Shown here: positions 3,634 through 48,859 of the stretch, in pieces
Layout of the letters: the number at the start of each line of letters is the position of its first letter
How positions within the stretch are numbered: position 1 is the first letter of the stretch
Source: Armatimonadota bacterium
GTDB lineage: Bacteria > Armatimonadota > UBA5829 > DSUL01
Assembly (NCBI GenBank): GCA_039811685.1
Contig: JBDHZC010000005.1
Span: 64,001-128,000 of the forward strand
Direction of reading: 5' to 3'
DNA length: 64,000 nucleotides
Notes under the pieces: model-generated
What the model was told of the DNA's origin: nothing
Databases searched by the model: none
The model's input: only the letters and a program-made list of their open reading frames with translations
Program-made: the position numbers and the translations under genes

Positions 3634-6054
3634 TCAGGAAGCTTTTGGCCGGAATCTCGCCTGCGGCGCTCGCGGCTCGTTGTCCGCCAGTCCGCTCGGG
3701 CGATCCACCCTCGTGGAGGTCTGGGTGTGATCCGGGCGTGAAGGCCGCGACGGCCTGTCCGGCTTGTGTCCCCGGTCGCTGCGCTCCCGGCCGCCTCTGT
3801 CGCCCCGCTCGCGGTCATTGCCGCGGTGATCTTCACCACGTCCGCCACTGCGCCCACCGCGTCCACCGCGGTCGCCGCCCCGGTCACGTCCACCTCTGTC
3901 TCCCCGGTCGCCGCGCTCCTCGCGTCTGTCAGAGGGAGGCGCTGCGTTCGGGTTAATAACCAGAGGCTCAGCCAGGCCTTCGGCAATCAGGCTCCGGCGC
4001 TCCAGATTGATGCGCCCCATATCGTCAATCTCAGCGATGCGCACCATCACCTCGTCCCCGACATTGAGAGCGTCTTCCGTGCGTCCGATGCGGTGATCGG
4101 ACATCTCCTGAATCCGAAGCAGACCGTCCTTACCGCCAGCCAGTTCGATGAAAGCGCCGAAGTTTGTCGTGCGTACGACTGTTCCGGTGAAGGTTTCCCC
4201 GACGGAAAGCTCCCGCGTCATATCTTCGACAATCTTCGCGGCCCGTTCGCCTCCTGCGGCGTCCGTGGAGGTGATAAACACCCGCCCGTCCTGCTCGATA
4301 GCCAGTTTCGCGCCCGTGTCCGCCTCTATCTTCTTGATATTGCGTCCTCCCGGGCCGATGACCTCGCCAATCTTCTCAGGATTGATCTGCACTACCAGGG
4401 CGCGCGGGGCATACTGGCTCATCTCTTCGCGCGGTGCAGGCAAGGCGCTCTGAATCGAATCCAGCACAGTCTGGCGCGCCGTGTCGGCCTTCTGGATGGT
4501 CTCGGCGACCTGCTGCATGCTCAGCCCGCGAATCTTGGTATCGAGCTGAATGGCGGTCACGCCGTCGCGAGTCCCGGCTACCTTGAAGTCCATATCGCCG
4601 GAGAAGTCTTCCATCCCCTGAATGTCCGTGAGAATCTTATACCGGTCCCCATCCGTCATCAGGCCCATGGCGATTCCGCCGACCGGTTTCTTGATGGGTA
4701 CGCCGGCGTCCATAAGCGCCAGCGTGGAGGCGCACGTGCTGGCCATAGAGGTGGAGCCATTGGACTCCAGCACCTCGCTTGTCAGCAGAATGCTGTAAGG
4801 AAAAGTCTCCTCATCCGGGATCATCGGGCGCAGAGCCTTCTCCGCCAGCGCGCCGTGGCCGATCTCGCGGCGGCCGGGTCCGCGCATTGGACGCACCTCT
4901 CCCACGGAGTAGGGCGGGAAGTTGTAGTAGTGCATGTAGCGCTTGGTTGTGTCCTCTTCGATGCCGTCCACGATCTGTGCGTCATCTACCGAGCCAAGCA
5001 CCAGCGCTGTCAACACCTGCGTCTGTCCGCGCGTGAACAGGCCTGATCCGTGCACTCTGGGCAACAGACCGACTTCGGAACTCAGTGCGCGGATAGTGTC
5101 CGCGTCTCTTCCATCCGGACGCTTGTTTTCGTCCAGAATCAGACGGCGCACTTCCTTCTTGATAACTTTGTCCGCTGCCGCGCCGACATCCGCCGATCGC
5201 TCCGGATAGGCGTCCGCCAGCCGTTCAACTATGCTCTTCTTCAGATCATCCAGCGCGCTTTCACGCGCCGCCTTATCCGGATCTACCAGCGCGCTCGAAA
5301 TCTCGCTGAGAAAGTCCTTCTTGATGCGATCCATAATCTCAGGATCCGGCAGTGAGAGAATTGGCTCCGCCTTGGCGACGCCAAGCTTCCTGGCCAGCTC
5401 ATCCTGAGCGTCGCACAGCATGATAATGTTGTCGTGCGCAAGCTGAATCGCTGCCACCACGTCTTCGTTGGACGCCTCCGAAGCCTCAGCCTCCAGCATG
5501 TTGACAGTATCACGCGTGCCGGCGGCGATGATCTCCATGTCCGCCTGGGTCATCTCTTCAAAGCTCGGATTGACGATGAGCTCTCCGTCCTTGCGGATCA
5601 CGCGCACGCAGGCGACTGGGCCATCAAAGGGAATGTCCGAGACCGCCAGCGCAAAGGCCGCCGCGTTCACAGCCAGCACGTCCGGCGCTGTACTCAGGTC
5701 AACCGACAGCGGCATAGCCACGACCTGCACGTCGTTGCGCATACCGTCCGGAAACAGCGGGCGCAGCGGGCGGTCAATCAGCCTTGAAGTGAGAATCGCC
5801 TTTTCCGACGGCCGGCCGCCTCTTTTGACAAATCCGCCAGGAATCTTACCAACAGCGTACTTGCGCTCTTCGTAATCGCAAGTGAGGGGGAAGAAGTCCA
5901 TGCCCTCCCGGGCTTGTCTGGACATGGTGGCTGTGGCGAGAATAACCGTGTCGCCACAGTAGAGGAGGACAGAGCCGTTCGCCTGTTTGGCAACGCGCCC
6001 TGCCTCGATCCGGAGCTGCTTGCCTCCCAGCTCCAGAGAAACAGTATTATCCAT
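3634..6054 (-). CDS. pnp: Polyribonucleotide nucleotidyltransferase (PNPase) with long RG/RD-rich C-terminal tail
   Basis: SRLIDRPLRPLF, RREIGHGALAEKAL, GDMDFKVAGT, KH and S1 domains; follows rpsO. Confidence 0.98.
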   Translation of the reverse strand: MDNTVSLELGGKQLRIEAGRVAKQANGSVLLYCGDTVILATATMSRQAREGMDFFPLTCDYEERKYAVGKIPGGFVKRGGRPSEKAILTSRLIDRPLRPLFPDGMRNDVQVVAMPLSVDLSTAPDVLAVNAAAFALAVSDIPFDGPVACVRVIRKDGELIVNPSFEEMTQADMEIIAAGTRDTVNMLEAEASEASNEDVVAAIQLAHDNIIMLCDAQDELARKLGVAKAEPILSLPDPEIMDRIKKDFLSEISSALVDPDKAARESALDDLKKSIVERLADAYPERSADVGAAADKVIKKEVRRLILDENKRPDGRDADTIRALSSEVGLLPRVHGSGLFTRGQTQVLTALVLGSVDDAQIVDGIEEDTTKRYMHYYNFPPYSVGEVRPMRGPGRREIGHGALAEKALRPMIPDEETFPYSILLTSEVLESNGSTSMASTCASTLALMDAGVPIKKPVGGIAMGLMTDGDRYKILTDIQGMEDFSGDMDFKVAGTRDGVTAIQLDTKIRGLSMQQVAETIQKADTARQTVLDSIQSALPAPREEMSQYAPRALVVQINPEKIGEVIGPGGRNIKKIEADTGAKLAIEQDGRVFITSTDAAGGERAAKIVEDMTRELSVGETFTGTVVRTTNFGAFIELAGGKDGLLRIQEMSDHRIGRTEDALNVGDEVMVRIAEIDDMGRINLERRSLIAEGLAEPLVINPNAAPPSDRREERGDRGDRGGRDRGGDRGGRGGRSGGRGEDHRGNDRERGDRGGRERSDRGHKPDRPSRPSRPDHTQTSTRVDRPSGLADNEPRAPQARFRPKAS

Positions 6055-6071
6055 GTGTAAGGTTTACACTC

Positions 6072-6341
6072 CTATCTGCGCAGGCCGAGTTTGCTGATGA
6101 GGGAACGGTAACGCTCAATATCTTTCTTGCTGAGGTAATTAAGCAAGCGGCGGCGTTTTCCGACCATCATCAACAGGCCTCTGCGGGAGTGGTGATCCTT
6201 CTTGTGCCCCTTGAGGTGCTCTGTAAGCTCGGAAATGCGGGCTGAGAGCAGGGCAACCTGAACTTCAGGCGAGCCTGTGTCAGCCTCGTGGGTCTTGTGC
6301 TCGCCGATAATCTCTGCTTTTCGCTCTTGCAAAAGCGACAT
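6072..6341 (-). CDS. rpsO: 30S ribosomal protein S15 (89 aa from ATG at 6341)
   Basis: [13 protein letters not shown] and [12 protein letters not shown] motifs; AGGAGG upstream; rpsO-pnp synteny. Confidence 0.98.
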
Positions 6342-6442
6342 GTATCGCCTGTTCCTCCTGCGCAAAGTCTGAGGACTGCGCATAACAACGCCGGTCCGCA
6401 GACCGGCTCTTTCAATAATCTCCACGTATGTGAGTCGGCAAC

Positions 6443-6471
6443 AGTTTACCATTCCACTAAACCACTGTCAA
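6443..6471 (-). promoter_or_regulatory. sigma70-type promoter of rpsO-pnp
   Basis: Minus strand TTGACA-17 nt-TAAACT. Confidence 0.75.
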
Positions 6472-6611: not shown

Positions 6612-6768
6612 TGCAGTTACTGTTCGTCCGGGAGGAAAGCTGTCCTGCTGGTGAGCCGAGTCTTGCGGGCGCGGAGTTTTGCCAGTTCTCCTTCGCCTGC
6701 AGATGCCCAAAGGAGGGCCCGCAGACATGAAACTATCAGCCTGTCCCATGAGGCGGGGGAAGTCCTCG

Positions 6769-7674
6769 ATGAAAAAACACTTAGTCACGCTTATGTTGGC
6801 TATGGCCCTTGCCGTTTCCTTCGCAGGCGCTGCGCCTGTGTTCGCGGCAGATAAGACCGTTGAGACTACGTCTAGCCCAGCGCCGGACGCCCTTGAGCTG
6901 CGAACGGCGTCGGACGCGGACGTGGTGACGATGCTCTCGGATGAACGCGCGATGTACCGCGCCTTTTTTGCGACGGAAGCCGGCGGTCGCGGCTTGACCG
7001 CGGCAAAGCCCCGGTTGAAGCATCTACTCTCAGACCCGGACGAGTTGGTCCGGGTGGAGGCTGCGGGAGCTCTGCTGCGGCTTACTGAGCGCTCCGGTGT
7101 CCCCGTGCTCCGGGCGGCCCTGTCCAACGAGGCGAGCAGGAGCAGACTGACTGCGGCCCGGTACCTGTCTCTAGTCGCAGACAAGCAGGCCGTGGCTGTT
7201 CTGCAGAACTATCTCACGAGCAAGTTATCTTTTGAGCGAGACACCGCCGTGCACGCCCTTGCAGCTCTGAAGGATGACTCGATCGCCTATGCCGCGCTGG
7301 TGGCCGGGTTGCAGGATGAAAACGATCTGGTACGCCAATCGGCCATTTATCTGCTGGGTGGACGCACGGGCGAACGCTCCACCCGGATGCTGCGTGAGAT
7401 CCTCCAAACAAGTCAGGTCCAGATGGAAAGAGGGATGGCAATCTCGTCGTTGGAGCGGCTCGGCACTCCTGCCGTGGTACTATCCATCATAGACGCTCTG
7501 GCGGACGAAAGTCCGGTCGTTAGTGTGGCAGCGCGAAGAGCTCTGCTGAAGCTGACAAGGCGTATCGGTGCGCCGGAGGGGGTCGGGCTGGCGCAGGCCG
7601 AGGATTGGCGCGCCTGGTGGGCGCAACACAGGCAGGAGTATAAGGAACACGGCCTGCCAGGGGCGGGAGGCTGA
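6769..7674 (+). CDS. Exported HEAT/PBS-lyase repeat protein (array gene 1)
   Basis: Signal peptide MKKHLVTLMLAMALAVSFAGA; HEAT motifs such as LSDPDELVRVEAAGALL; C-terminal WRAWWAQH. Confidence 0.85.
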   Translation: MKKHLVTLMLAMALAVSFAGAAPVFAADKTVETTSSPAPDALELRTASDADVVTMLSDERAMYRAFFATEAGGRGLTAAKPRLKHLLSDPDELVRVEAAGALLRLTERSGVPVLRAALSNEASRSRLTAARYLSLVADKQAVAVLQNYLTSKLSFERDTAVHALAALKDDSIAYAALVAGLQDENDLVRQSAIYLLGGRTGERSTRMLREILQTSQVQMERGMAISSLERLGTPAVVLSIIDALADESPVVSVAARRALLKLTRRIGAPEGVGLAQAEDWRAWWAQHRQEYKEHGLPGAGG

Positions 7675-7835
7675 AGAACCCCCAGCGTCCGGCGGAATGA
7701 CCATTTCATGAACAGCGCAGGCTACCATAGCAGCTTCTAGTTCGCGGCGTCACGTGGAGATGAAGGAATCTACGGCCCGGCGGGTCTATTCAGTTGGGCA
7801 GCGAACGGAAGTTGCCTGTGCCGGAAGCTTTCAGG

Positions 7836-7946
7836 GCCGATTGGGAGCAGTGGTGGGCCGAGAACCAGAGCCAGTTCCCGCCTGGCGCCAAGATCAAAGC
7901 TAAAGCTGCGGCCTTCGAACCAGCCGAACCCGCAACGGAGTGGTAG
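7836..7946 (+). repeat. Orphan copy of the 3' tail of the HEAT gene at 14301-15221
   Basis: Encodes DWEQWWAENQSQFPPGAKIKAK, matching the end of that gene. Confidence 0.85.
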
Positions 7947-8046
7947 CGGTGGAACAGCGCTTCATCCGCGCAGAGGAGCGCATCTGCGCATGGACTTGGC
8001 GAATCTTTCACCCACTGGCTCCAGGTGGGGATACCTGGAGAGATGT
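7944..8046. repeat. Structured 103-bp intergenic repeat, copy R1
   Basis: TAGCGGNGGAACAGCGCTTCATCC...CTCCAGGTGGGGA(C/T)ACCTGGAGAGATGT; seven copies, three hairpins. Confidence 0.95.
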
Positions 8047-8191
8047 GATGCAAGACGATGCCTTGAGTGGGTTCTTTACGCCGACGGGTCAGTCCGGCTA
8101 CTACCTCTACAAGAAGCAGTCGCCCAGCGACGTGCGGCTGGAAGGAAGAGAAGTTCCGTACCCGTAGCGCCTATCGGCGAAAGAGGATGAA

Positions 8192-9184
8192 ATGTTTCGA
8201 CAGTTGATCTGGTTTGTCACAGCAGCGCTCCCTTTGCTCGCACTTGTGCTCGCCGCGGCCGCGTGCGGTGCAAGCGATATTCCGGTCGCTGTGCCCGCCC
8301 CCGGAGAGCCGCCTGTTCTGTTCGCTGCCGAGTCAGCAGGTGTGCTCTACACGGCAACTCTGGAGGCGGACAAGCGCGTTGCGGTCATCGCCGCCCTGCC
8401 GCTTGATCGAGTTGCGGAAAAACGGACTTACACAGTGCCGGTACCCGCTCTCGAATACGAAAGTTTCCAGCGGCTCCGCTGGAGACTGGGCAGCGGATAC
8501 GCGTGGCTGCTGCCAACGGTGCTGACGAATGGTGGCTTACGCCGCTACCCGATGTATCGCATTCCGCGCAGCGAACTCGACAAACTCCTCCACGGCAGTA
8601 ACGAAGCCAGCGGAAGCGGCTTGAAAGACATGTGGTTTCCGCCGGGCTTTGCGCCACTCACACGCGCGGACGATGAATCCGGGGTGAAAGGGCAGCCGAT
8701 CTACGGAGACTTCTACCCTATCTCTACATCAGCTATCCGGCAGTTCATTTTGCAGGGCAGCGTACTGAGCGTCTGGGACTACATCGGAAACCCAGACGCC
8801 AAGCGGCCTGGGGGAAGTGACAGAGACCTCACTCCCGTGGCTGACCGAGAGCGGTACTTCAACTGGGTCCGCGTGGTGAAGCTGAAGGCGCCTTTTACGG
8901 AGTCCTTCCACGCGTTTCCTCAGAAGGGCGGGTTCCTGCTGGTTACGGACTCCGGCGCGCTCTACTCCATCACGGGCATCAGCACCGGTACTCCAGCGAT
9001 ACGCAGGGTGGATCTGGGCGACGAGCAGATCAGGGTTATCGTGCAGACGGAGGGTGGATCGGCCATTGCGGCGACGCAGACGAAGCGCCTCGATCTGTCC
9101 TCGGCGCCGAAGCTGTCGCCGCTTTCGCATCCGCACAGCTCACCGACGGCTGCGGCCCTTGAGCTGGCCAAAGCGCTGAAGTAG
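8192..9184 (+). CDS. Putative lipoprotein of unknown function, family X copy 1
   Basis: AGAGGA RBS; lipobox-like VLAAAAC; near-identical to 13020-14012; ends LAKALK. Confidence 0.85.
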   Translation: MFRQLIWFVTAALPLLALVLAAAACGASDIPVAVPAPGEPPVLFAAESAGVLYTATLEADKRVAVIAALPLDRVAEKRTYTVPVPALEYESFQRLRWRLGSGYAWLLPTVLTNGGLRRYPMYRIPRSELDKLLHGSNEASGSGLKDMWFPPGFAPLTRADDESGVKGQPIYGDFYPISTSAIRQFILQGSVLSVWDYIGNPDAKRPGGSDRDLTPVADRERYFNWVRVVKLKAPFTESFHAFPQKGGFLLVTDSGALYSITGISTGTPAIRRVDLGDEQIRVIVQTEGGSAIAATQTKRLDLSSAPKLSPLSHPHSSPTAAALELAKALK

Positions 9185-9414
9185 TAGCGGGGTCGGCCGC
9201 GCTCAGTGAAGGAAGTCAGCCATCGCGGAGTCAAAGAATGGAGAAACAAGTAGCTCAGGCGCAGCAAACCGTTCTGACTCTTGAAGCTGCGACAGCTACC
9301 TGCGCCGATTGGAAGCAGTGGTGGGCCGAGAACCAGAGCCAGTTTCAGTCCGGCACCAGGAGCAAAGCTGAAGCTGCGGCCTTCGAACCAGCCGAACCCG
9401 CAACGGAGCAGTAG
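9185..9414 (+). repeat. Linker repeat: ~80-bp spacer plus degenerate HEAT-gene 3' tail
   Basis: Similar to 12539-12774 and 16382-16611; tail matches 15070-15221 with a frameshift. Confidence 0.85.
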
Positions 9415-9514
9415 CGGAGGAACAGCGCTTCATCCGCGCAGGTGTCCTCACCTGCGCATAGAATTGGCGAATCTTTCACCCACTGGCTCCAGGTGGGGAC
9501 ATCTGGAGAGATGT
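9412..9514. repeat. Structured 103-bp repeat, copy R2
   Basis: Ungapped match to R1; hairpin-1 variant GCGCAGGTG-TCCT-CACCTGCGC. Confidence 0.95.
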
Positions 9515-9617
9515 AAATGGGGGCCCTTCTGCCAGACTGGGACGATGATGATCCCAATCTGAACGGGGCGGAGAACGAGGACCTGGACCAGGTGACACGC
9601 GTCGAATGAGGAGACCA

Positions 9618-11090
9618 ATGGTTTACAATGGAGTTATGGTCGTCGCCCGGCAGAAAGGCCCTGCCGGCCACTATGCAGCTGTCCTCGCGATAGCCGCATT
9701 CGTGTCCGCAGTGTGTGCTGCACAAGCGGCGTGCGAACTGCCAACTCACGGTTGGGAGTTCACAGTCGCAGCGGAGCACACGCCGGCTGTAGCGATCAGT
9801 AGAGACGGCTCGCGCATCGCCGTTTCCGACTGGGCGGCCATCTATCTACTTGACCGGCAGGGCAAGGTGCTGTGGACCGCGAAGGCGCCACCGAAGAGTG
9901 GCTTCGGAGTGACCGCCATCTCTGACACCGGCCATCGTGTGCTGTGCTGGAAGATTCGGCGCCTCCCAAGTGTGGACAACGAGGATATCGACTACAACGC
10001 GGTGCTCTTCAACGGCGCCAACGGGCAGGTGCTGACCGAGATCGAGCTGGACGGGGGCCGAGTGCCGACGGCGCTGTCTGGCGATGGACGGTATATTCTG
10101 GCGGGCTATCCGCCGGACGGCCTGGGCCTGGAAATGGCAGCACAGCCTGATCCCGCCAACTACCTCATGCTCTTAGATGACACCGGCAAGACCGTCTGGC
10201 GCTCAGACAAGCTTGCCCAAAAGCCCGTTGTCGGAGCGGCTTACGGCTTTTTATCCCACACCGGTTCCTATGCGCTGCTCGGCGCAAAAGACCGCCTGAA
10301 CCTTGTGACCATCGGCGGCTATCACCTTTTCGACATTGCACTGACGTCAGACCCTGCCGTTTCCGCCGACGCTGACTTGATCATGATGGGCGCCACACCC
10401 GTGTTGTCCACAGACGTTCAGAAGTATGAGACCGCATGGCCTGTTGTCGCGCCACAGGGTGAGCAAGAGCCGCAGACATGGGGCCATGAGTCCTTTGGCT
10501 TCAAGACGTACACTGCAGCCGCGGCGCTCGCCTTGGTCCGCGTCGGGGATGTGGCCGAGGAGTCGCCTCCCCCGAACCGGCGGCATCCCTTTGCGGAGCT
10601 GGTGTGGGCGCATGGCGAGATCTGGGCGGGAAACCGGGAACGAGTGCTGGATGCGCCGAAGCTTCCGCCCATTCCCGCCGGTAATCCTGGACGGCGCGGG
10701 GTTGCCTACGGATCGGCTGGGCTGCTGGCAATTGTCGACCACACGCTGTTGGCGGCAGAGCTTGGGCAGGAGCACGCGGTGAAGTTGCTACGCCTGCCAG
10801 GGCTGGGGATTGTGAAAAGGGTCGGCGTGTCCAGCAACGCTTCCCGCGCCTACACTCTCGTCGCCGTCCCCGCTGGGTCCGATCTAGTGGGACGCGGCCC
10901 CAGCACGGGTTCGGCGGCTTCCGCTCTTGTCTGCACCGTCTGGGACAGGTCTGCCAAACCTGTTGCAACAATGCCTCTTTCAGAGCAGGAGAGGCCCTTC
11001 GCGATAGCCTTCTCCCACGCAGGCGATCTCCTGATCCTAGCGTGGAAGGGTAAGGTGCAGGCGTTCGAGATCGGAGGCGTCGCCAGGTAA
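9618..11090 (+). CDS. Exported beta-propeller (WD40/PQQ-like) protein
   Basis: GAGGAG RBS before ATG 9618; signal-like hydrophobic stretch; blade motifs VAISRDGSRIAVS, ALSGDGRYILAG, AFSHAGDLLILA. Confidence 0.75.
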   Translation: MVYNGVMVVARQKGPAGHYAAVLAIAAFVSAVCAAQAACELPTHGWEFTVAAEHTPAVAISRDGSRIAVSDWAAIYLLDRQGKVLWTAKAPPKSGFGVTAISDTGHRVLCWKIRRLPSVDNEDIDYNAVLFNGANGQVLTEIELDGGRVPTALSGDGRYILAGYPPDGLGLEMAAQPDPANYLMLLDDTGKTVWRSDKLAQKPVVGAAYGFLSHTGSYALLGAKDRLNLVTIGGYHLFDIALTSDPAVSADADLIMMGATPVLSTDVQKYETAWPVVAPQGEQEPQTWGHESFGFKTYTAAAALALVRVGDVAEESPPPNRRHPFAELVWAHGEIWAGNRERVLDAPKLPPIPAGNPGRRGVAYGSAGLLAIVDHTLLAAELGQEHAVKLLRLPGLGIVKRVGVSSNASRAYTLVAVPAGSDLVGRGPSTGSAASALVCTVWDRSAKPVATMPLSEQERPFAIAFSHAGDLLILAWKGKVQAFEIGGVAR

Positions 11091-11293
11091 CCCGGGTCGA
11101 GAACCCAATGCAGTTGACTTACTACGCCGACTGGAACTCAGAGACCGTAGCGATGGCCGGACTGCTTGCCGGAGGGGACGGCCAGTGCGGCTCCGCCTCA
11201 GGCGCAGCACGACGGCCTGGAGGGCCCGGCCTAGCAGCAGATGGTCGCCTGTCTCACGGATATGAAGACCGCGCTGGGGTGTCCCCAGGCTAT

Positions 11294-11381
11294 GCTTCAT
11301 CCGCGCAGGTGTCCTCACCTGCGCATAGAATTGGCGAGTCCTTCGCCCACTGGCTCCAGATGGGGACACCTGGAGAGATGT
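11294..11381. repeat. Structured repeat, copy R3 (88-bp core, 5' flank absent)
   Basis: Starts at GCTTCATCC and ends GAGATGT; all three hairpins present. Confidence 0.93.
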
Positions 11382-11455
11382 AAAGCTCGACCTGATATCG
11401 AGTGACGTAGCCGGCAGGGAAGCCTCGTATCCATAGCGTTAGAAGGAGTCACTAG

Positions 11456-12538
11456 ATGAAGATCACCGCTGTTGCCAAAGCTCTTCTTGTCTGTTGGTTG
11501 GCGGTCGACGCCGTCAGCCCTGCCGTCGCCGAGAGCTATCTATTCAGTGAAGAGACGAAGCACCCCCTGATCGTCCAGCGCCCGCTGACAGGCATACTGG
11601 TTGATGAGACTATGTACACTCTCTCGATCGCGCCAGAGTCGGGCTATGCGCCTGTACTGACGGAGACGCCGATGACCGCGCTTGCCGCGCCTGTCAGCTA
11701 CGCTCTCACCGCAGTAGCCGACGCCAGACGCCCGGCCTTTCCTGTTCACTGGTCGCTGCGTGGAGGTTTTGTTTGGACGTTGACTGAGTCCGATACGCCG
11801 CTGAGTGGCATAGTGCCGTTTTACTTCAGTCTTCAGCGGACTGCGCTGACTGGCCTGGAGCCGTGTGCCGCAGCCACCACGCATGTGGTCAAGCCCGGTA
11901 CTGTTGCCGATGTGTGGCACGCTCATCTGGCTAAGTGGGAGCGTGTCGCTTTCACTGAGCCCGAGACGCTGAACGACGCGACGCGGGCCGCCCGGCCTCC
12001 CGAGGTACCCTATCCTCTTGCCGCTATCGTGGTGACGGGACCGGTGACCGTCCAGCTTTTCCAGTTGACCGCCCCACATATGATGGGATGGGAGTACCGT
12101 GGGCCGGAGAAGCCTCGGCGGTGGAAAGCCGCGTTTGGGCCGGGGATGGCGCCGATCTCTCCCGAGAGTCAGCGGGGCGTGCCTCTCAAGGAGCGTACTC
12201 ACTCCGGCGACTGGTGGCGCATAGGGATGTTCGACGTTCCCTTCAGCGAGGCCTAGGAAGTGGCCAAGGTCGAAGGTACCTACTACGCCGTGACACAGAG
12301 CGGAGAGGTTTTCTCTCTGGGCGACCTTACCGGGAAAGTAAAGAAGATCGACATAGGAGGCAGACGTGTGACGGCGATTCTGACGCTGGAGGAGAGCGGA
12401 AAGGTGTATCTTTGTTCGCATGAGGACTACGCGCCGCTGTCGGATTCGCCTGGATTCAAATCCATTCCTGGAGGACACCCAGACGTCACCAGATCGGCAA
12501 CGCAGTGCCTGCTGGACCTGGCGAAGGCGTTGAACTAG
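11456..12538 (+). pseudogene. Family X exported protein interrupted by an in-frame TAG at 12254-12256
   Basis: ORFs 11456-12256 and 12260-12538 share a frame; PFSEA*EV aligns with PFAEPFEV of 15380-16381; AAGGAG RBS and signal peptide. Confidence 0.8.
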
Positions 12539-12774
12539 CGCAGGGACTGCCATCCGCACGCAGTGAAGGAAGGCAGCCATCGCGGAGTCAAAGAATCGAG
12601 AAATGAGCGGCTCAGGCGCAGTAAAGCGATCTGAATCTGAAGGCCGCGGAAGCTGCCAGGTCCGATTGGGAGCAGTGGCGGGCAGAGGACCAGAGCCAGT
12701 TTCAGTCCGGCACCAAGATCAAAGCTGAGGCTGGCGCACCCTCGATGTCGCCCGGCCCCGCGGCTCAGCCGTAG
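12539..12774 (+). repeat. Linker repeat: spacer plus HEAT-gene 3' tail
   Basis: Similar to 9185-9414 and 16382-16611. Confidence 0.85.
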
Positions 12775-12874
12775 CGGAGGAACAGCGCTTCATCCGTGCA
12801 GATGAGCGCATCTGCGCATAGAATTGGCGAATCTTTCACCCACTGGCTCCAGGTGGGGACACTTGGAGAGATGT
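12772..12874. repeat. Structured 103-bp repeat, copy R4
   Basis: Ungapped match to R1. Confidence 0.95.
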
Positions 12875-13019
12875 GATGCAAGACGATGCGTTGAGCGGGT
12901 TCTTTAGGCCGGCGGGTCAGTCCGGCTACTACCTCTACAAGAAGCAGTCGCCCAGCGATGTGCGGCTGCAAGATACTGAAGTTCCGTACCCGTAGCGCCT
13001 ATCGGCGAAAGAGGATGAA

Positions 13020-14012
13020 ATGTTTCGACAGTTGATCTGGTTTGTCACAGCAGCGCTCCCTTTGCTCGCACTTGTGCTCGCCGCGGCCGCGTGCGGTGCA
13101 AGCGATATTCCGGTCGCTGTGCCCGCCCCCGGAGAGCCGCCTGTTCTGTTCGCTGCCGAGTCAGCAGGTGTGCTCTACACGGCAACTCTGGAGGCGGACA
13201 AGCGCGTTGCGGTCATCGCCGCCCTGCCGCTTGATCGAGTTGCGGAAAAACGGACTTACACAGTGCCGGTACCCGCTCTCGAATACGAAAGTTTCCAGCG
13301 GCTCCGCTGGAGACTGGGCAGCGGATACGCGTGGCTGCTGCCAACGGTGCTGACGAATGGTGGCTTACGCCGCTACCCGATGTATCGCATTCCGCGCAGC
13401 GAACTCGACAAACTCCTCCACGGCAGTAACGAAGCCAGCGGAAGCGGCTTGAAAGACATGTGGTTTCCGCCGGGCTTTGCGCCACTCACACGCGCGGACG
13501 ATGAATCCGGGGTGAAAGGGCAGCCGATCTACGGAGACTTCTACCCTATCTCTACATCAGCTATCCGGCAGTTCATTTTGCAGGGCAGCGTACTGAGCGT
13601 CTGGGACTACCGCGGAAACCCAGACGCCAAGCGGCCTGCGGAAAGTGACAGAGACCTCACTCCCGTGGCTGACCGAGAGCATTACTTCGACTGGGTCCGC
13701 GTGGTGAAGCTGGAGGCGCCTTTCACGGAGTCCTTCCACGCGTTTCCTCAGAAGGGCGGGTTCCTGCTGGTTACGGACTCCGGCGCGCTCTACTCCGTCG
13801 CGGGCATCAGCACCGGCACTCCAGCGATACGCAGGGTGGATCTGGGCGACGAGCAGATCAGAGTTATCGTGCAGACGGAGGGTGGATCGGCCATTGCGGC
13901 GACGCAGACGAAGCGCCTCGAGCTGTCCTCGGCGCCGAAGCTGTCGCCGCTTTCGCATCCGCACAGCTCACCGACGGCTGCGGCCCTCGATCTGGCCAAA
14001 GCGCTGAAGTAG
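13020..14012 (+). CDS. Putative lipoprotein of unknown function, family X copy 2
   Basis: Duplicate of 8192-9184 at an offset of 4828 bp; differences confined to the 3' part. Confidence 0.85.
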   Translation: MFRQLIWFVTAALPLLALVLAAAACGASDIPVAVPAPGEPPVLFAAESAGVLYTATLEADKRVAVIAALPLDRVAEKRTYTVPVPALEYESFQRLRWRLGSGYAWLLPTVLTNGGLRRYPMYRIPRSELDKLLHGSNEASGSGLKDMWFPPGFAPLTRADDESGVKGQPIYGDFYPISTSAIRQFILQGSVLSVWDYRGNPDAKRPAESDRDLTPVADREHYFDWVRVVKLEAPFTESFHAFPQKGGFLLVTDSGALYSVAGISTGTPAIRRVDLGDEQIRVIVQTEGGSAIAATQTKRLELSSAPKLSPLSHPHSSPTAAALDLAKALK

Positions 14013-14115
14013 TAGCGGGGGAACAGCGCTTCATCCGCGCAGATGAGCTCATCTGCGCAAAGCATTGGCGAGTCCTTCACCCACTGGCTCCAGGTGGGGA
14101 CACCTGGAGAGATGT
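14013..14115. repeat. Structured 103-bp repeat, copy R5
   Basis: Perfect hairpins GCGCAGATG-AGCT-CATCTGCGC and CTCCAGGTG-GGGA-CACCTGGAG. Confidence 0.95.
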
Positions 14116-14300
14116 AAAGCGACGTTCGTGGCGGCAATCAACCAGGAGAGGATCGCGGGTGATAAGGATTACGAGGAGCAGGCCTACGGCGCGGAGGCCG
14201 TGTGCGAAATGGACCTGCTGGAGGAGACGTGCGCGTACGTCACGCCGCCATGTGAGGCGTGTCCATGACCATGGTATGCAGTCCTAGAACGGAGGTCGTT

Positions 14301-15221
14301 TTGAAACTCTTTATTGTGCTACTGCTTGCTGCTGCTCTTTGTGTTACGGCAATATCCGAGGGTGCGTCGGCCGAGCGCACGTGTGCCGCCACCAGGTATT
14401 ACCGCTCCACGGTTTCTGAGTTGGTCGGGCTGCTTTCGAGTGGGCTGTCTATCGACCGGTTCGACGCGGCTCTCGAACTCGGGCGGCGAGGCGATGTGTC
14501 AGTGATCCCTGCAATGAAGGCTGCGCTTGGCGATCCGGAGCGTTTCGTGCGGATGCGGATAGCTGCTGCGCTGCTGGATCTCGGCGATCGAAGCGGCGTG
14601 GAGGTACTTCACGAAGTTGTTACGTCGGGTGAGCCCTACTGGAGTCTGGCAGCGGCGGAGGTGCTTGCCCATCACGGTGACACCTTTGGCCGTGATCTCA
14701 TCAGGAAGGCTCACTCTTCGAGCAGTTGGGTCGCTCGCTCCTCAGCCTTAAGGGCCTCGGCCGACCTTCCGGAGGGGCCGCCCTACGACGCCGTGGCTGC
14801 CGGACTGGAGGACTCGCAGCAGATTGTCCGCTTGACCGCCCTGAGGGCTGCTCAAATGTGCCATGACCCCCGGGTGAAGGATCTGGTCCGCAAGGCGTTG
14901 TCTTCTTCCGATACGCTTCTGAGGGCGCGCGCGGCCATCATAATTGCGGAGGAGGGGCAGCCCGCAGACATTCCGGCTCTGATAGCGCTGTTGACAGCTC
15001 CGGATGGGGTTACCCGTTCTGCCGTTCTCAGAGCACTGCAGTCGCTGACGGGGCGTGCTTCTCCGTCGAAAACCGTTCTGACTCTTAAGGCTGCGACAGC
15101 TATCCGCGCTGAGTGGGAGCAGTGGTGGGCCGAGAACCAGAGCCAGTTCCCGCCTGGTACCAAGATCAAAGCTGAGGCTGGCGCACCCTCGGTGTCGCCC
15201 GGACCCGCGGCTCAGCCGTAG
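14301..15221 (+). CDS. Exported HEAT/PBS-lyase repeat protein
   Basis: GGAGG RBS before TTG 14301; signal peptide; ALGDPERFVRMRIAAALLDLGD repeats; WEQWWAEN tail. Confidence 0.85.
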   Translation: MKLFIVLLLAAALCVTAISEGASAERTCAATRYYRSTVSELVGLLSSGLSIDRFDAALELGRRGDVSVIPAMKAALGDPERFVRMRIAAALLDLGDRSGVEVLHEVVTSGEPYWSLAAAEVLAHHGDTFGRDLIRKAHSSSSWVARSSALRASADLPEGPPYDAVAAGLEDSQQIVRLTALRAAQMCHDPRVKDLVRKALSSSDTLLRARAAIIIAEEGQPADIPALIALLTAPDGVTRSAVLRALQSLTGRASPSKTVLTLKAATAIRAEWEQWWAENQSQFPPGTKIKAEAGAPSVSPGPAAQP

Positions 15222-15321
15222 CGGAGGAACAGCGCTTCATCCGTGCAGAGGAGCGCATCTGCGCATGGACTTGGCGAATCTTTCGCCCACTGGCTCCAGA
15301 TGGGGACACCTGGAGAGATGT
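15219..15321. repeat. Structured 103-bp repeat, copy R6
   Basis: Ungapped match to R1; begins on the HEAT gene stop codon. Confidence 0.95.
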
Positions 15322-15379
15322 AAGTCGCGAATACTGAGCGCAACTGAGATGCACAATGAGAAGCAAAGGACACAGTAAA

Positions 15380-16381
15380 ATGAGGGTACGGAAACGGCCT
15401 CTTCTTCTTCTCTTCGGAGTCCTACTTGTCACCACTCCACCAGCTGTCGGGCAGCCGTCTCCTGGTGTTCGCCTACGTCCTGGTCAAAGCCAACTGGTGC
15501 AGACTCCGCTGACGGCCTCTTCACGTGCGGGCGTTCTTTACACAGTGATCATTGACAAAGGGCGTGCCTTGCTGCGGCAGACGCCTCTTGATACTTCATC
15601 GCCCGTTCGCTTCGCAAGTCTGGAGTCCTCCAGCCGTTTGACCGGTATCGGCCCGATGTTTCCAGCGCATTGGGGACTTGCAGACGGCTTCCTTTGGTCG
15701 CTGGTTCTTGAAGAAGGAGACGCATACTGGGCCAGCCCACATCTAAGCCGCTTCGCGCTGGAGGACATGCGTCTCGTGGACCCGGACAACGCCCTTCCGC
15801 CTCGAGGCGCGCACCGCACAAGGCGCACAGAAGTCCCCCCGTATCCTCTCCTGGATGCCATCGCGGAAGGGTCAAACCGTGACTTACTGGTCTTCCCCGC
15901 GCTTCAGCCCCTGTCGCGCAAATCCGTCCGCCTGTTCGTGCTGCAGCCGCCCGTGCTGACGGTATGGGTGAACGAAGACCCCGCGCTTTTCGCACCACGA
16001 ACGTCCGGACGCAGCGTCGAAGGACGCGTGAAGGAAAAGGGCAGGATTGAGAACTGGTTGAAGGTTGCGTCTATCAGTGTTCCTTTCGCCGAGCCTTTCG
16101 AAGTTGTTGGGTGCGGTTCCGTCTGCTACTTCATCACAGGAAGCGGGGACCTCTATGCAGATAAAGATCTGAAGGCAAGTCCGCAGAAGATCGACACAGG
16201 AGGCAGGCGCGTGACGGCGATTCTGACGCTGGAGGAGAGCGGAAAGGTGTATCTTTGTTCGCACGAGGACTACGCGCCGCTGTCGGATTCGCCTGGATTC
16301 AAATCCATTCCTGGAGGTCACCCAGGCGTCACCAGGTCGGCAACGCAGTGCCTGCTGGACCTGGCCAAAGCGCTGAAGTAG
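15380..16381 (+). CDS. Family X exported protein of unknown function
   Basis: AAGGA RBS; signal peptide; shares AGVLYT, PF.E.F, T.SG.LY and LDLAKAL motifs with other family X genes. Confidence 0.82.
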   Translation: MRVRKRPLLLLFGVLLVTTPPAVGQPSPGVRLRPGQSQLVQTPLTASSRAGVLYTVIIDKGRALLRQTPLDTSSPVRFASLESSSRLTGIGPMFPAHWGLADGFLWSLVLEEGDAYWASPHLSRFALEDMRLVDPDNALPPRGAHRTRRTEVPPYPLLDAIAEGSNRDLLVFPALQPLSRKSVRLFVLQPPVLTVWVNEDPALFAPRTSGRSVEGRVKEKGRIENWLKVASISVPFAEPFEVVGCGSVCYFITGSGDLYADKDLKASPQKIDTGGRRVTAILTLEESGKVYLCSHEDYAPLSDSPGFKSIPGGHPGVTRSATQCLLDLAKALK

Positions 16382-16611
16382 TAGCGGGGTCGGCCGCGCT
16401 CAGTGAAGGAAGTCAGCCATCGCGGAGTCAAAGCATGGAGAAACGAGCGGCTCAGGCGCAGCAAACCGTTCTGACTCTTAAAGCTGCGACAGCTATCCGC
16501 TCCGATTGGGAGCAGTGGTGGGCCGAGAACCAGAGCCAGTTCCCGCCTGGCGCCAAGATCAAAGCTGAGGCCGCACCCCCGGCGTCGCCCGGACCCGCGG
16601 CTCAGCCGTAG
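16382..16611 (+). repeat. Linker repeat: spacer plus HEAT-gene 3' tail
   Basis: Tail 16463-16611 near-identical to 15070-15221. Confidence 0.88.
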
Positions 16612-16711
16612 CGGTGGAACAGCGCTTCACCCGTGCAGAGGAGCGCATCTGCGCATTGAATTGGCGCATCTTTCGCCCACTGGCTCCAGGTGGGGACATC
16701 TGGAGAGATGT
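16609..16711. repeat. Structured 103-bp repeat, copy R7
   Basis: Ungapped match to R1. Confidence 0.95.
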
Positions 16712-16857
16712 AAACAAACAACGTGATGAAGAAGAAGCGTACTCCGAACAGGAGATGTGCGAGAGGCTTACGTTGGACGACTGGTGTACATTTGGTATCC
16801 ACGGGCCCTGCACGGCGTGCGATGATCTCAATGACTAGCAAGATGATGGAGGAAAGA

Positions 16858-17772
16858 ATGACGAAGATGGTAGCGCTGGTTCTAATCTGCGGGTGGTTCG
16901 GCTGGGGTGGTGTCTGTGCTGCGGGGCCGGCTACCCCTGTCACCGCCACAAATGGCTCAGCGACTCGTTCACCGGATTGTGACGAGGCGAGTGTCCCTGA
17001 ATTGATTGCCATCCTTCGTGAGCGTGGAACCTTTGCTGTCCGTGCAGCACAGCTCCTTGCGGATCGCCACGCGACGTCTGCAATTCCGGATCTCGCGCTG
17101 TTGTTGACGGATCCGAAAATCTCTCTGCGGATAAATGCGGCGCGTGCAATGGCGCTCCTGGGAGACCGGAGCGGGTTACCAGTGCTGCGGGCGGCGCTGA
17201 CAGAGGGTGACGATTTCCACGCCTCTATCGCGGCCGCTTTTCTGGCGCAGCTTGGCGACGACAGTGGGCGCGCGGTTTTGGAGAGGGAACTCAGTAGTCA
17301 AAACTGGATCGACCGGAGGCAGGCCCTGTACGCATTGGCGCTTCTTCCGGATGGTCTGTCTGATGTGGCTGTTGCAGCGGCTCTAGAGGACGAAAGGCCG
17401 GAGGTACAAAGAAGCGCGTTTCGTGTGGCCTGGAAAAATGCGTCTGATAGGGTGCGGGAGGTGTTGATTAAAAAGACACAGTCCCCGGATCCGCTTACCC
17501 GCTGGCGGGCGACTGAGGCCCTGTTTATGAGTAACCCGCACCGAAACGCAGAGATTGCTATTGGCATGATTACGGATCCGGACCGCCTCGTACAGGGACA
17601 AACATCCATGATGCTGGCGCATTTCTCCCGTGTGGCTGTGCCTCGGGTGAGCGGGTGGATGAGGAGTGCCGAGCGGGCAAGAGATCTCAAGCAGGCGTAT
17701 CTGGAGTGGCTGGCGGTTAACAGGGACGTGGCGTTCCCGCCAACCGAGCCGGCGCCGCCTGCACCGCAATAG
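16858..17772 (+). CDS. Exported HEAT/PBS-lyase repeat protein (last array gene)
   Basis: GGAGG RBS before ATG 16858; signal-like N-terminus; LLTDPKISLRINAARAMALLGDRSG repeats. Confidence 0.85.
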   Translation: MTKMVALVLICGWFGWGGVCAAGPATPVTATNGSATRSPDCDEASVPELIAILRERGTFAVRAAQLLADRHATSAIPDLALLLTDPKISLRINAARAMALLGDRSGLPVLRAALTEGDDFHASIAAAFLAQLGDDSGRAVLERELSSQNWIDRRQALYALALLPDGLSDVAVAAALEDERPEVQRSAFRVAWKNASDRVREVLIKKTQSPDPLTRWRATEALFMSNPHRNAEIAIGMITDPDRLVQGQTSMMLAHFSRVAVPRVSGWMRSAERARDLKQAYLEWLAVNRDVAFPPTEPAPPAPQ

Positions 17773-17884: not shown

Positions 17885-18775
17885 CTACACCCGCTTGCGG
17901 CGAACCACCCCTGCCAGTGATACCAGGCCGGCTCCCAGCGCGAGCAGGGAACCCGGCTCAGGCACCAGCGTCAGCGAGAAGTCATCAAAGTAGCCAGTCT
18001 GGCTTCCGAACTTTGAGTTCACTTCTATAACATTGTAGCCGTAGTTGAGCACGGAATTATGAGTCAGCGTCGGATTCACCATGTCGTCAATGTAGAACCA
18101 GACGTCGTTTGTGCCGTCGCCGAGCGCAGGCCCAACCACGATGCGCGCCTGATGCCAACCAACGCTTCTGCTGGTGCTGGTGTTGAACCATCCGTTAGGG
18201 CCGCCGTAGCCGTCGCTGGACCCGACAACGCGAGCCTGATACTTGCTGGTATCCCCGGTGCTTTGCGCTCCCAGTGAAAGCCGCTGGATCTTGCTGGCGC
18301 CGGCGTTCAGGCTGCCCGATCCAGGATAGTCAGTGCCGGAAGGCGCCGTGTTGTAATAGCCAAGAGCGACGTAGTCCTTGAAGTTGCCGTCACCCGCGCC
18401 ACCGACGTCGTAGAACCACCAGTCGAGCGTCAGATTCCCGGTAAAGACGTTGCCGCCGTTGAAGCGATAGGCGATATTCAACCAGTTCTGGTCAATGTCT
18501 GCCCCGCCTACGAAGGCTCCGCGAAGCATGTGGTCACCACTGTGGGGCGTGACGCCGCTGTCGGTCGAAACTACCTGTCCGTTTGGCGGGTTGGGGCCGA
18601 ACCAGGGGTTGCCGGACCCGTTTGGCGCCGAGTTCGCGCCACCGGGGGCATTCTTGTCGAGCGCGCCGATATTGGCGCCCTCAAATCCGTCTGTAAAGAC
18701 GGGAGCCGCCTGCGCCGTGAAAGCTGTGGCCACAACCAAAAGTCCCACCGCGCAGAGGAGCATTCCTCTTTTCAT
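17885..18775 (-). CDS. PEP-CTERM sorting-domain protein
   Basis: Signal peptide MKRGMLL; C-terminal VPEPGSLLALGAGLVSLAGVVRRKR; GAAGGAG RBS. Confidence 0.92.
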   Translation of the reverse strand: MKRGMLLCAVGLLVVATAFTAQAAPVFTDGFEGANIGALDKNAPGGANSAPNGSGNPWFGPNPPNGQVVSTDSGVTPHSGDHMLRGAFVGGADIDQNWLNIAYRFNGGNVFTGNLTLDWWFYDVGGAGDGNFKDYVALGYYNTAPSGTDYPGSGSLNAGASKIQRLSLGAQSTGDTSKYQARVVGSSDGYGGPNGWFNTSTSRSVGWHQARIVVGPALGDGTNDVWFYIDDMVNPTLTHNSVLNYGYNVIEVNSKFGSQTGYFDDFSLTLVPEPGSLLALGAGLVSLAGVVRRKRV

Positions 18776-18854
18776 ACTTTCTCCTTCTGTCTGCCTGCAG
18801 TCAGCCGATCTTACGCCGGCTTGCACTCTAGCAGTACACAAACGTACTTAATTT

Positions 18855-47476: not shown

Positions 47477-48859
47477 ATGAGGCTGTCTACAGTATTTCGG
47501 CTGTTGGCGAAAGTGAGCTCAGCTTTATCTGCTGTGCTCATAGTAGCCTTCGCTACCGGGCCGCTTGCGGCTGACTACGGCAATATTGTAGTCAACGGTG
47601 ACTTTGAGAACGGACTGACAGGCTGGAATCTGGCCACCCCCACAAAACCAGCCTACAACTACAACAATCCCCCGATCTCCCCACAGATATTCAGCGGTAA
47701 CGGTCCTGTAAAGACCCAAACCTATCAGGGGACGTTTGGAGACCCGGTCAATACCATTCCGGCAGCCTACAACAATCACTCCATCGGGTGGTTTCGCTCG
47801 GGACCGCCCGCTGACAACTACGGAACGCTACCGGGCGGCTTTCTCTACAACTTCGTTTATCAGAACATCTTCGTAACGCCCGGCGTCGAGTACACCATTG
47901 AAAGCGCCAACTGGCAAGCCTCGGCCTGGAACACCTACGACGACTCGAAAAACAGCATCAACGAGATCGCTGCGATGCTGCTGATCCGTATGGATTCGCA
48001 GCTCGATACTCCCTACGACCCGAACGATCCGTCCACCTACAGCTTCCGGAGCACCTGCTGGAATCTGGCGTCGCTCGGAAACTGGGTTCCAAAGCAGTTG
48101 ACGCCGGGGTCTAAGTTCACCAGTACAACTGGGCGCGTCCAGATTCAGGTTCACTTTCAGGACGGCTACTACGACCGGGACTACGGGGACGCCTACACCA
48201 ACGTGATGATGGACGACCTCTACATCGGGCTGGACAAGCCGCTTGTCGCTCCGCCGACAGTTGCGTCTATCGCTGAGGCTAAGTCCAATCCCGATAGCAG
48301 CACGTTCAACATCGCCAATGACGCTGTGGTTACCCTTGCGGGGCAGGGCTTCTTCTACGCCCAGGACCCGGACGGCACAGCGGGTATCCACGTGAACTCG
48401 AGCGCCACTGTCGCCGTTGGAGACACGGTCAAGCTGGATGGCGTGACGATCGTCACGAACCCGGACGGTGAACGTCAGCTTAACGTTCTGACAGCCACGG
48501 TCACGGGCACAGGGACCACCAAAGTCCGAAAGACCACTAACAGAACGATTGACGGCAATGGCTATCCGGACGGTGAGATCCCGCTCAACCAGGGGCTGCT
48601 CATGAAGACCTCGGGCCGCGTGATGGACTCGCAGGTGGACCAAGACGGTAACCCGGTCCTGTTCATTGACGATGGCTCAGGTGTGGACGGCGGCAATACG
48701 CTCGGGCTGAACGGACTGCGCGTGATTGGCGACGGTACGGTGGATCTGTTTACGAACTACATCTTCACGGGTGTCGTCTCATCGGTTCGCGTGGATGGCA
48801 GGATCATCCGGGTCCTGCGCCTGCGCGGACCCTCAGATATCGTGCGCGCCGACCTGTAG
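47477..48859 (+). CDS. Exported protein with CBM-like N-terminal domain and uncharacterised ~200-aa C-terminal domain
   Basis: AAGGAGG RBS, signal peptide, NIVVNGDFENGLTGW; paralogous to 49004-49831. Confidence 0.82.
   Translation: MRLSTVFRLLAKVSSALSAVLIVAFATGPLAADYGNIVVNGDFENGLTGWNLATPTKPAYNYNNPPISPQIFSGNGPVKTQTYQGTFGDPVNTIPAAYNNHSIGWFRSGPPADNYGTLPGGFLYNFVYQNIFVTPGVEYTIESANWQASAWNTYDDSKNSINEIAAMLLIRMDSQLDTPYDPNDPSTYSFRSTCWNLASLGNWVPKQLTPGSKFTSTTGRVQIQVHFQDGYYDRDYGDAYTNVMMDDLYIGLDKPLVAPPTVASIAEAKSNPDSSTFNIANDAVVTLAGQGFFYAQDPDGTAGIHVNSSATVAVGDTVKLDGVTIVTNPDGERQLNVLTATVTGTGTTKVRKTTNRTIDGNGYPDGEIPLNQGLLMKTSGRVMDSQVDQDGNPVLFIDDGSGVDGGNTLGLNGLRVIGDGTVDLFTNYIFTGVVSSVRVDGRIIRVLRLRGPSDIVRADL

Follow-up and report, generated by a model that had tools for sequence, protein, structure and literature searches.

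The window analyzed here, a stretch of 64,000 nucleotides from an Armatimonadota bacterium (assembly GCA_039811685.1, contig JBDHZC010000005.1, positions 64,001 to 128,000), contains seven copies of a 103-bp repeat that punctuate an array of co-oriented genes. We conclude, with a probability of about 85%, that the 88-bp core of this repeat is a doublet of repetitive extragenic palindromic (REP) units, of the REPIN type with its tags facing outward, that is, selfish DNA of an already known type rather than a novel structured RNA. This conclusion is drawn because the palindromic units that make up the core flank genes for REP-associated tyrosine transposases (RAYTs), both here and in three further members of the class. 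The initial annotation of the window had described a three-hairpin multibranch structure that it did not recognize as a known RNA family; in place of a unitary three-way-junction RNA, we find two REP-type units in inverted orientation, and such units are present elsewhere both singly and in pairs. When compared with the passages of PMC3337134, PMC5581495, and PMC3733652 that define REPs and REPINs, the element has most of the defining features of a REP doublet.

Seven copies of the repeat carry two inverted palindromic units

A repeat search of the window returned a family of seven direct copies spanning 7939-16716, with in-register starts at 7939, 9407, 11274, 12767, 14008, 15214, and 16604 and 73-92% identity to the reference copy. 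MAFFT aligned a 103-bp stretch across the copies without indels; the third copy (R3) shares with the others the 88-bp core alone. BLAST of one copy against the whole assembly (3.42 Mb, 15 contigs) found exactly these seven sites. The number, position, and gap-free alignment of the copies in the initial annotation are borne out. Every copy lies on the + strand in an intergenic position flanked by + strand open reading frames (ORFs). R1 (7944..8046, core 7959-8046) begins with a 15-nt shared linker that starts at the TAG of an upstream "tail" ORF (see below), and is followed by R2 (9412..9514, core 9427-9514) and R3 (11294..11381), whose left edge coincides exactly with GCTTCATCC, which is the left unit's outer tag. 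R4 (12772..12874, core 12787-12874) is part of a duplication, R5 (14013..14115, core 14028-14115) abuts the stop codon of gene B2 without a tail ORF between them, R6 (15219..15321, core 15234-15321) starts at the TAG of the HEAT-repeat gene E, and R7 (16609..16711, core 16624-16711) ends 12 nt before the start of HEAT G.

Three hairpins had been described in the repeat, and the alignment showed their sequences to have been quoted correctly. Hairpin 1 (H1) reads GCGCAGATG-AGCT-CATCTGCGC in R5 and GCGCAGGTG-TCCT-CACCTGCGC in R2 and R3, hairpin 2 (H2) reads GGCGA(A/G/C)-TCY-TTC(A/G)CC, and hairpin 3 (H3) reads CTCCAG(G/A)TG-GGGA-(C/T)A(C/T)(C/T)TGGAG, with CATC and GATG at the two ends of the repeat. 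The frame that is open in R1 does run into TAG (CATAGAAT) in R2, R3, and R4, and wobble-type variants are indeed seen on both strands. In R5, the left REP unit (14028..14058, - strand) consists of the tag GCTTCATCC (14028-14036) followed by H1 (14037-14058), and upon reverse complementation it aligns to the family consensus, in which the hairpin is followed by GGATGAA. A 29-nt spacer (14059..14087), which holds the weak H2 and is specific to the sub-family of the array, separates it from the right REP unit (14088..14115, + strand), composed of H3 (14088-14109) and the tag AGATGT (14110-14115), where the family consensus has GGATGA. This is the geometry of a REPIN, with H1 as the reverse unit, H3 as the forward unit, and both tags outward.

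Both hairpins belong to a dispersed family of palindromes

A covariance model built from the seven copies was searched against the genome itself (G000) and related genomes. Apart from the array, the model matched C10:3392-3492 (42 bits), C10:1321-1403, and C3:184452-184530, as well as sites in four related genomes. The matches have a common layout, TCATCC-CTCCAGGT…ACCTGGAG, then a variable spacer, then CTCCAGGT-GGGA-ACCTGGAG-GGATGA, and in the cmsearch alignments of the other doublets the spacer/H2 region is an unaligned insert of 10-24 nt. The family consensus unit, CCTCCAGGTT-GGGA-AACCTGGAGG-GATGA, is a palindrome of ~30 bp with a 10-bp stem, a 4-nt GGGA-type loop, and a conserved unpaired tag, which reads GGATGA (TCATCC on the other strand) and differs from both GTAG and CGTC. 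In the genome as a whole, we counted 18 units beyond the array, distributed in both orientations over contigs C1, C3, C5, C10, and C11, in addition to 14 within it. An open frame of at least 150 codons covers only 6 of the 18 dispersed units, as compared to 92.6% of 2000 random sites, by a test that is a crude open-frame proxy for extragenic position and uses no gene calls.

To place the hairpins of the repeat within this family, we aligned 24 units from the genome: the 18 dispersed ones, three H3, and three reverse-complemented H1. The consensus was TTCAATGCCTCCAGGTT-GGGA-AACCTGGAGGGATGAAA, and both halves of the repeat are plain members of the family. Paired bases occupied 95.8% of the cells, as compared to 33-59% in slid controls, and five of the ten stem pairs were double-changed (19 cells), a covariation score reached in 0 of 500 shuffles, with the caveat that the changes go back to few events among related copies. 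Compensatory change, which the initial annotation had claimed, is much clearer in this alignment; within the seven copies alone it is not significant, since one of 28 pairs is double-changed, in two of the seven copies, and 145 of 500 column shuffles equal the score. H1 corresponds to a reverse-complemented unit in which the outer 3 bp have been switched compensatorily from CTC/GAG to GCG/CGC, and in R2 and R3 its inner stem and loop (CAGGTG-TCCT-CACCTG) are exactly those found in the C3:184463 unit, which lies to the left of a RAYT gene. The seven copies of the array are a private sub-family, marked by the left stem GCG/CGC and the right tag AGATGT.

Doublets with outward tags are also present outside the array, at C10:3392-3492 and in at least six cases among the matches listed for the related genome G043. 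The C10 doublet has 41 bases in common with the left end of the transposase cassette on contig C3 and then passes directly into a forward unit; from its sequence, it looks like the C3 cassette minus its gene.

The units flank RAYT-type genes

A search of the genome with Pfam Y1_Tnp found one weak site, which lies within an ORF on contig C3 (C3:184560-185276). The protein match is preceded by a reverse unit at a distance of 76 nt and followed by a forward unit after 478 nt, and the outward polarity of the tags in this cassette is the same as in the doublets. The C3 protein matched the NCBIfam model of REP-associated tyrosine transposases, NF047646, over its full length (model positions 1-146/146) with an E value of 1.9e-21 and 76.5 bits, and reached only 18.1 bits with the IS200 model. 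The HUH motif (H98, H100) and the catalytic Y175 (LEYMHNNPV) are invariant in 14 relatives and align with the motifs of 4ER8. Furthermore, a profile of 14 RAYT-like proteins matched E. coli TnpArep (4ER8) with an E value of 2.5e-13, and three Protein Data Bank (PDB) chains titled "transposase," which we take to be of the IS200/IS605 type (ISDra2 TnpA), at ~0.005. Judged by these matches and motifs, the C3 gene appears to be an intact, unit-flanked HUH/Tyr (Y1) transposase of the REP-associated type. The nearest RAYT relatives in public data are found in metagenome-assembled Armatimonadota genomes, at 44-52% identity.

A second RAYT-like gene (C5:24073-24606; L186:774-1307, minus strand), ~40 kb upstream of the start of the window, is intact and encodes a protein of 177 amino acids in which the motifs HVH and NYIHANPV are present. 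Its score with NF047646 is 75.8 bits (E value ~1e-21, over the full model), and it shares 31% identity with the C3 gene. A forward unit lies ~490 nt from it. Short fragments derived from the 5' ends of the two genes (ATGCTGCGGGAATG… and …AAGTGGAAGAGCATTGACACTGG…) are repeatedly found adjacent to units, at C3:185277-185340, C10:2780-2830, C5:4660-4690, C11:46740-46770 and 48070-48090, and C1:82430-82455, which suggests that many units descend from decayed transposase cassettes. The initial annotation had pointed to recombinases acting on single-stranded DNA (ssDNA), which proved to be the right direction. It had also named a confident match to a known insertion sequence (IS) end as grounds for abandoning its reading, and units beside a RAYT gene come near to such a match.

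Units and RAYTs occur together in related genomes

The exact palindrome is present in 9 of 61 related genomes, with 1-85 sites each (G000, 14; G008, 61; G010, 10; G032, 85; G035, 23; G043, 47; G045, 3; G047, 16; G048, 1), and a reversed control pattern has no site in any of the 61. A RAYT-like match was found in all nine palindrome-bearing genomes, as compared to 24 of the 52 others. We inspected the flanks of 23 RAYT-like matches in relatives and found units near five of them and none in the flanks of the remaining 18. At G043:C26, a reverse unit lies 64 nt upstream and forward units lie 78 and 135 nt downstream of the gene, so that it is flanked on both sides, as is the C3 gene of G000. One side is occupied at G035:C219, which has two reverse units 91 and 223 nt upstream on a contig that stops just beyond the gene, and at G008:C60, with a unit 125 nt upstream. 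A unit is also close to the RAYT-like match at G035:C35. In G004, a genome of the same family as G000, a 55%-identical pseudogene on contig C2 is preceded by a compensated variant unit, CCTCCAGTTG…CAACTGGAGG, at 152 nt (176 nt with the extended stem). The proteins at G043:C26 and G035:C219 score 99.4 and 98 bits with NF047646, both over its curated cut-off of 80 bits.

When five other genomes of the class were searched with a model of the single unit, each gave 13-93 matches, in counts where one site may appear on both strands. Minus/plus pairs of units ~49 nt apart, that is, tags-outward doublets, are frequent in G043. Across genomes, the stem is nearly invariant except for its loop-closing pair, which is T-A, A-T, or G-C, and the tagged unit was detected in 7 of 401 genomes sampled across the phylum, all of the same class and none of them one of the five genomes of G000's family. 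At least three RAYT lineages, mutually only 31-35% identical, adjoin this same near-invariant unit. A further genome of the class, G050, holds 46 RAYT-like matches over many contigs, many of ~180 amino acids, some in tandem, and some with an internal TGA; this pattern is an IS-like expansion of the same protein family.

H1 and H3, not the junction, are the conserved structure

Next, we evaluated the fold itself. When two copies (90 nt) were folded as ssDNA, the z scores were -3.8 to -4.6 for either strand, and none of the 200 dinucleotide shuffles that served as background was as stable. The minimum free energy (MFE) fold of R5 contains H1, H3, and a helix between CATC and GATG; that of R2 lacks the junction. 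With the previously proposed structure imposed on the seven copies, 94.4% of the cells are paired. RNAalifold, one of the checks suggested with that structure, predicted H1 and H3 on the + strand and neither H2 nor the CATC/GATG helix. H1 and H3 are thus genuine conserved stem-loops. H2 is weak: four of the seven copies carry a C.A mismatch on the + strand, 88% of its cells are paired, it has no covariation support, and it is absent from the other doublets. As for the supposed junction-closing helix, CATC and GATG are merely the conserved tag of each unit (GGATGA) in opposite orientations.

Rfam has no match at the gathering score in the window, in agreement with the earlier remark that the repeat was not recognized as a known RNA family, and at E values up to 10 only chance-level matches appeared, of which SNORA43 over R3 (19.5 bits against a gathering score of 80) was the only one to overlap a copy. 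Outside the repeats, sub-threshold matches to naRNA4 (27.2 against 59.5 bits) are located in genes B1 and B2, at 8488-8548 and 13316-13376. We take naRNA4 to be REP-derived in E. coli, and the matches are probably due to chance. At the 3' end of each of the seven copies stands GGAGAG-ATG-TAA (or TGA), which amounts to a mini-ORF of a start and a stop codon located 2 nt past GGAG (for example, 14106-14117). We set aside a function for this mini-ORF, as it is probably a by-product of the diverged tag and, in our judgement, its GGAG spacing is too short for a ribosome-binding site.

Relation to known REP, IS, and integron systems

The units resemble the REPs and REPINs of E. coli (REP/BIME-TnpArep) and Pseudomonas fluorescens in being short palindromes with an unpaired conserved tag at one end, in being dispersed, mostly extragenic, and arranged singly or as inverted doublets, and in lying on either side of a HUH/Tyr transposase gene of low copy number with matches to 4ER8 and the REP-associated model. 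They differ in their tag (GGATGA instead of GTAG), in their low copy number, and in their host, which appears from the nearest RAYT relatives to be Armatimonadota-like and not a proteobacterium. Moreover, the stem is near-invariant over several genera with divergent RAYT lineages beside it, and the seven copies described here are private to one locus, where they have spread by duplication. The portions of PMC3733652 that describe the GTAG and CGTC super-families and their REPtrons and TIRtrons report a similar stem-loop with an unpaired tag, mainly downstream of coding regions, and, for REPtrons, RAYT genes flanked by repeats; here neither tag is found at either end of the unit. CATC, contained in TCATCC, is one base from CGTC, which may be a coincidence.

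IS200/IS605 elements (IS608, ISDra2) likewise encode a Y1 HUH transposase, and in the relevant passages of PMC6006769 their subterminal hairpins are recognized as ssDNA in a "peel and paste" mechanism. In contrast, one palindrome, repeated in inverted orientation, forms both ends here; hairpins are much more numerous than genes, and the protein is nearer to TnpArep. Integron attC sites likewise fold as single strands and are interspersed among gene cassettes that share one orientation; the present case differs in that no integron integrase is nearby, that two short perfect hairpins stand in place of one bulged stem, and that the units occur outside arrays too.

By analogy with the E. coli and Pseudomonas systems, the hairpins would form in ssDNA, and a RAYT would bind them and cut beside the tag, mobilizing the doublets in trans. 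According to the sections of PMC3733652 that deal with it, the E. coli RAYT cleaves single-stranded REP at the tag, and the binding or cutting of ssDNA hairpins by RAYTs is also treated in parts of PMC5581495, PMC3337134, PMC3116915, and PMC3479197. The position of the doublets between genes of one orientation makes their co-transcription probable, and at the RNA level the hairpins may serve as barriers, stabilizers, or mRNA processing sites of the REP type; in the corresponding passage of PMC3733652, a role of REP as an RNA stabilizer is merely "hypothesized."

The doublets spread with the gene array by duplication

The array (6679..17772, + strand) consists, in order, of HEAT A (6679-7674), a tail ORF, R1, B1 (8192-9184), a tail ORF, R2, C (9606-11090), R3, D (11456-12538), a decayed tail, R4, B2 (13020-14012), R5, HEAT E (14259-15221), R6, F (15356-16381), a tail ORF, R7, and HEAT G (16723-17772). 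The repeats are 1.2-1.9 kb apart, and the distance from the end of a repeat to the next start codon is 12 to ~145 nt. A search of the + strand between the genes of the array turned up neither a sigma-70-like promoter nor an intrinsic terminator, which is consistent with one long transcript.

The tail ORFs copy the C terminus of HEAT E (…DW(E/K)QWWAENQSQF…, with the pattern …W-x2-WW-x-EN…). The first (7794..7946, + strand; …DWEQWWAENQSQF…) is an orphan homologue of this C terminus that was duplicated with the doublet. The second (9238..9414, + strand; MEKQVAQ…DWKQWWAENQSQF…) has 58 amino acids and ends at the TAG that starts R2, and the third forms the last 58 codons of a longer ORF (16255..16611, + strand) that ends at the TAG starting R7. 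In the decayed tail (12603-12771), the ATG has been lost (ATC at ~12595). In two of the tail ORFs, both GGAG and ATG are plausible. The tails as a group probably represent remnants of genes, copied when the doublet was duplicated.

Self-BLAST revealed a mosaic of segmental duplications, the largest of which (7822-9192 / 12647-14020) is 95% identical over 1374 bp and includes R4. The copies of the repeat have thus multiplied largely via segmental duplication of modules comprising a gene, a tail, and a doublet. Where the stop codon of B2 meets R5 directly, B1 carries a 228-nt insert that ends in GTAGCGG(G/A)GG, and the sequence upstream of R5 reads as a deletion between short direct repeats of this motif. 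On average, pairs of copies are 91% identical within the core, as compared to 80% for the upstream tail and 53% for the downstream flank. All four gametes are present in 38 of 78 informative-site pairs of the core, and the copies therefore exchange sequence. We infer that gene conversion is responsible for this exchange and keeps the core more alike than its flanks. In the gene cassettes between the doublets, the tags face inward, opposite to the transposase cassette; thus, it is the doublet and not the gene cassette that has the polarity of a mobile unit.

The proteins of B1/B2, F, and C have signal-peptide-like N termini and belong to no Pfam family. The array is specific to its lineage; for C and B1, no homologue was found in five genomes of the same family, and these genomes therefore offer no orthologous doublet-free locus for comparison. 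For B1, the ESM Atlas gave weak leads (top score 0.88; beta-propeller-like or lipoprotein clusters), which we did not use. Gene D has an in-frame TAG (12254-12256) followed by 92 more codons homologous to the C terminus of F, and is either a pseudogene or a case of read-through. The array is bordered directly upstream by pnp (PNPase) and rpsO (3634-6452, minus strand), and a gene for a PEP-CTERM protein lies at 17885-18841 on the minus strand.

In public reads, 17 DNA runs each hold at least half of the words sampled from the stretch, and 20 runs from 11 studies hold any; their organism labels include activated sludge, sludge, wastewater, bioreactor, and biofilm metagenomes. Contigs from three DNA runs are interrupted at the repeats without showing any joints, and are thus neutral with regard to rearrangement. 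Contigs from one RNA library, which are not proof of transcription, touch four short places, and one of them, ~92% alike, covers 16468-16706 (tail and R7).

Weighing the REP-doublet assignment and its alternatives

Several observations weigh against the assignment of the core as a REP doublet. According to the portion of PMC3733652 that surveys them, most described REP families carry GTAG or CGTC, whereas the tag here is GGATGA. With 18 dispersed and 14 array units, the copy number is low for a REP family, and the two RAYT-like proteins of G000 score just below the 80-bit cut-off. The exact unit is absent from all five genomes of G000's family, so that its distribution is patchy, and a perfect hairpin of at least 8 bp is missing within 450-600 bp of six of the seven closest RAYT relatives checked (47-55% identity). 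Finally, the GCG/CGC sub-family occurs nowhere else in the genome and had no match in two metagenome scans, one with the right and one with the left half of the repeat, of collections that may lack records close to this genome; its confinement to the locus means that there is no direct sign of doublet transposition. R3 does present the bare 88-bp core in a different context, but all copies are within one locus, and its exact core boundary is the sole hint of transposition.

A self-contained structured RNA (a cis-regulator, ribozyme, or small RNA) with a three-way junction, acting on a polycistronic transcript of the array, would account for the position of all seven copies on the coding strand between co-oriented genes, for the lack of + strand promoters and terminators between these genes, for the presence of H1, H3, and the CATC/GATG helix in the MFE fold of R5, and for the RNA-library contig over R7. 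Yet H2 and the junction have no covariation support and are omitted by RNAalifold, R2 folds without the junction, the spacers of the other doublets of the family are unrelated, and Rfam gives no match. The units, moreover, also occur singly, in both orientations, and beside transposase genes, and wobble-type variants are found on both strands, which together make this reading improbable. Still smaller is the chance that the hairpins are ends or remnants of autonomous IS200/IS605-type IS (or PATE-like derivatives) instead of a domesticated REP/RAYT system. The weak Pfam Y1_Tnp and NCBIfam IS200 matches of the Y1 HUH protein, the IS-like abundance of RAYT-like matches in G050, and the transposase remnants adjoining several units speak for such elements, but the REP-associated model scores far better than IS200, TnpArep is the best solved relative, two intact divergent genes contrast with ~32 hairpin units in the genome, and the ends are not a distinct left and right pair but inverted copies of one palindrome. 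We give slightly less credence again to duplex-DNA operators, that is, two CAGRTG-N4-CAYCTG palindromes ~51 bp apart at which a dimeric regulator would control each downstream gene. Although H1 and H3 have common inner half-sites (CAG(A/G)TG/CA(T/C)CTG), their centers are about five helical turns apart, and each copy lies upstream of a gene, the distance to the start codon varies widely, the compensatory changes (CTC/GAG to GCG/CGC; loop-closing T-A to G-C or A-T) preserve the pairing and not the half-site, and the units accompany transposase genes and their remnants.

The layout of one gene followed by one folded repeat, in a single orientation and at 1.2-1.9 kb spacing, with sharp repeat boundaries and unrelated flanks, is reminiscent of integron cassettes, in which a tyrosine recombinase would shuffle cassettes at attC analogues. 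We rejected this reading, the least probable of those considered, since no IntI-type integrase is adjacent and no integron integrase was found in the genome, whose only two Phage_integrase (PF00589) genes are both on contig C2 and none on C5. The two separate perfect hairpins also differ from the one long imperfect stem of attC, the units are dispersed singly and associated with a Y1 HUH transposase, and plain segmental duplication, which includes coding sequence, explains much of the array. A doubtful proposal, though one that we rate above the others in these paragraphs, is that the doublets are joints by which the array of secreted-protein and HEAT-repeat genes is built and reshuffled. Recombination or gene conversion between doublets might move whole gene modules, or a Y1 HUH transposase might act on the folded hairpins, giving a RAYT-run, single-strand, integron-like cassette system. 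The sharp boundaries of the core against unrelated flanks, the bare core of R3, and the GTAGCGG(G/A)GG deletion joint speak for such a role, as do the greater similarity of the core than of its surroundings and the pervasive four-gamete failures. In enterobacteria, REPs can act as join-points of tandem duplications.

Implications of a probable REP/RAYT system in Armatimonadota

With the core assigned to REP doublets, a candidate structured RNA is resolved into a known class of element. The case also carries a general lesson, as an inverted pair of palindromic units always mimics a multi-hairpin fold with a closing helix. Judged by titles and abstract openings, a single literature search on RAYTs in Armatimonadetes turned up no work on REP elements, and the units and genes described here add a REP/RAYT system in a little-studied lineage. 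Its odd tag, a stem that is near-invariant across several genera, and its divergent RAYTs bear on how such repeats persist and on whether they move between lineages. The locus itself is a compact natural case of REP doublets inside a duplicating gene array with active sequence exchange.

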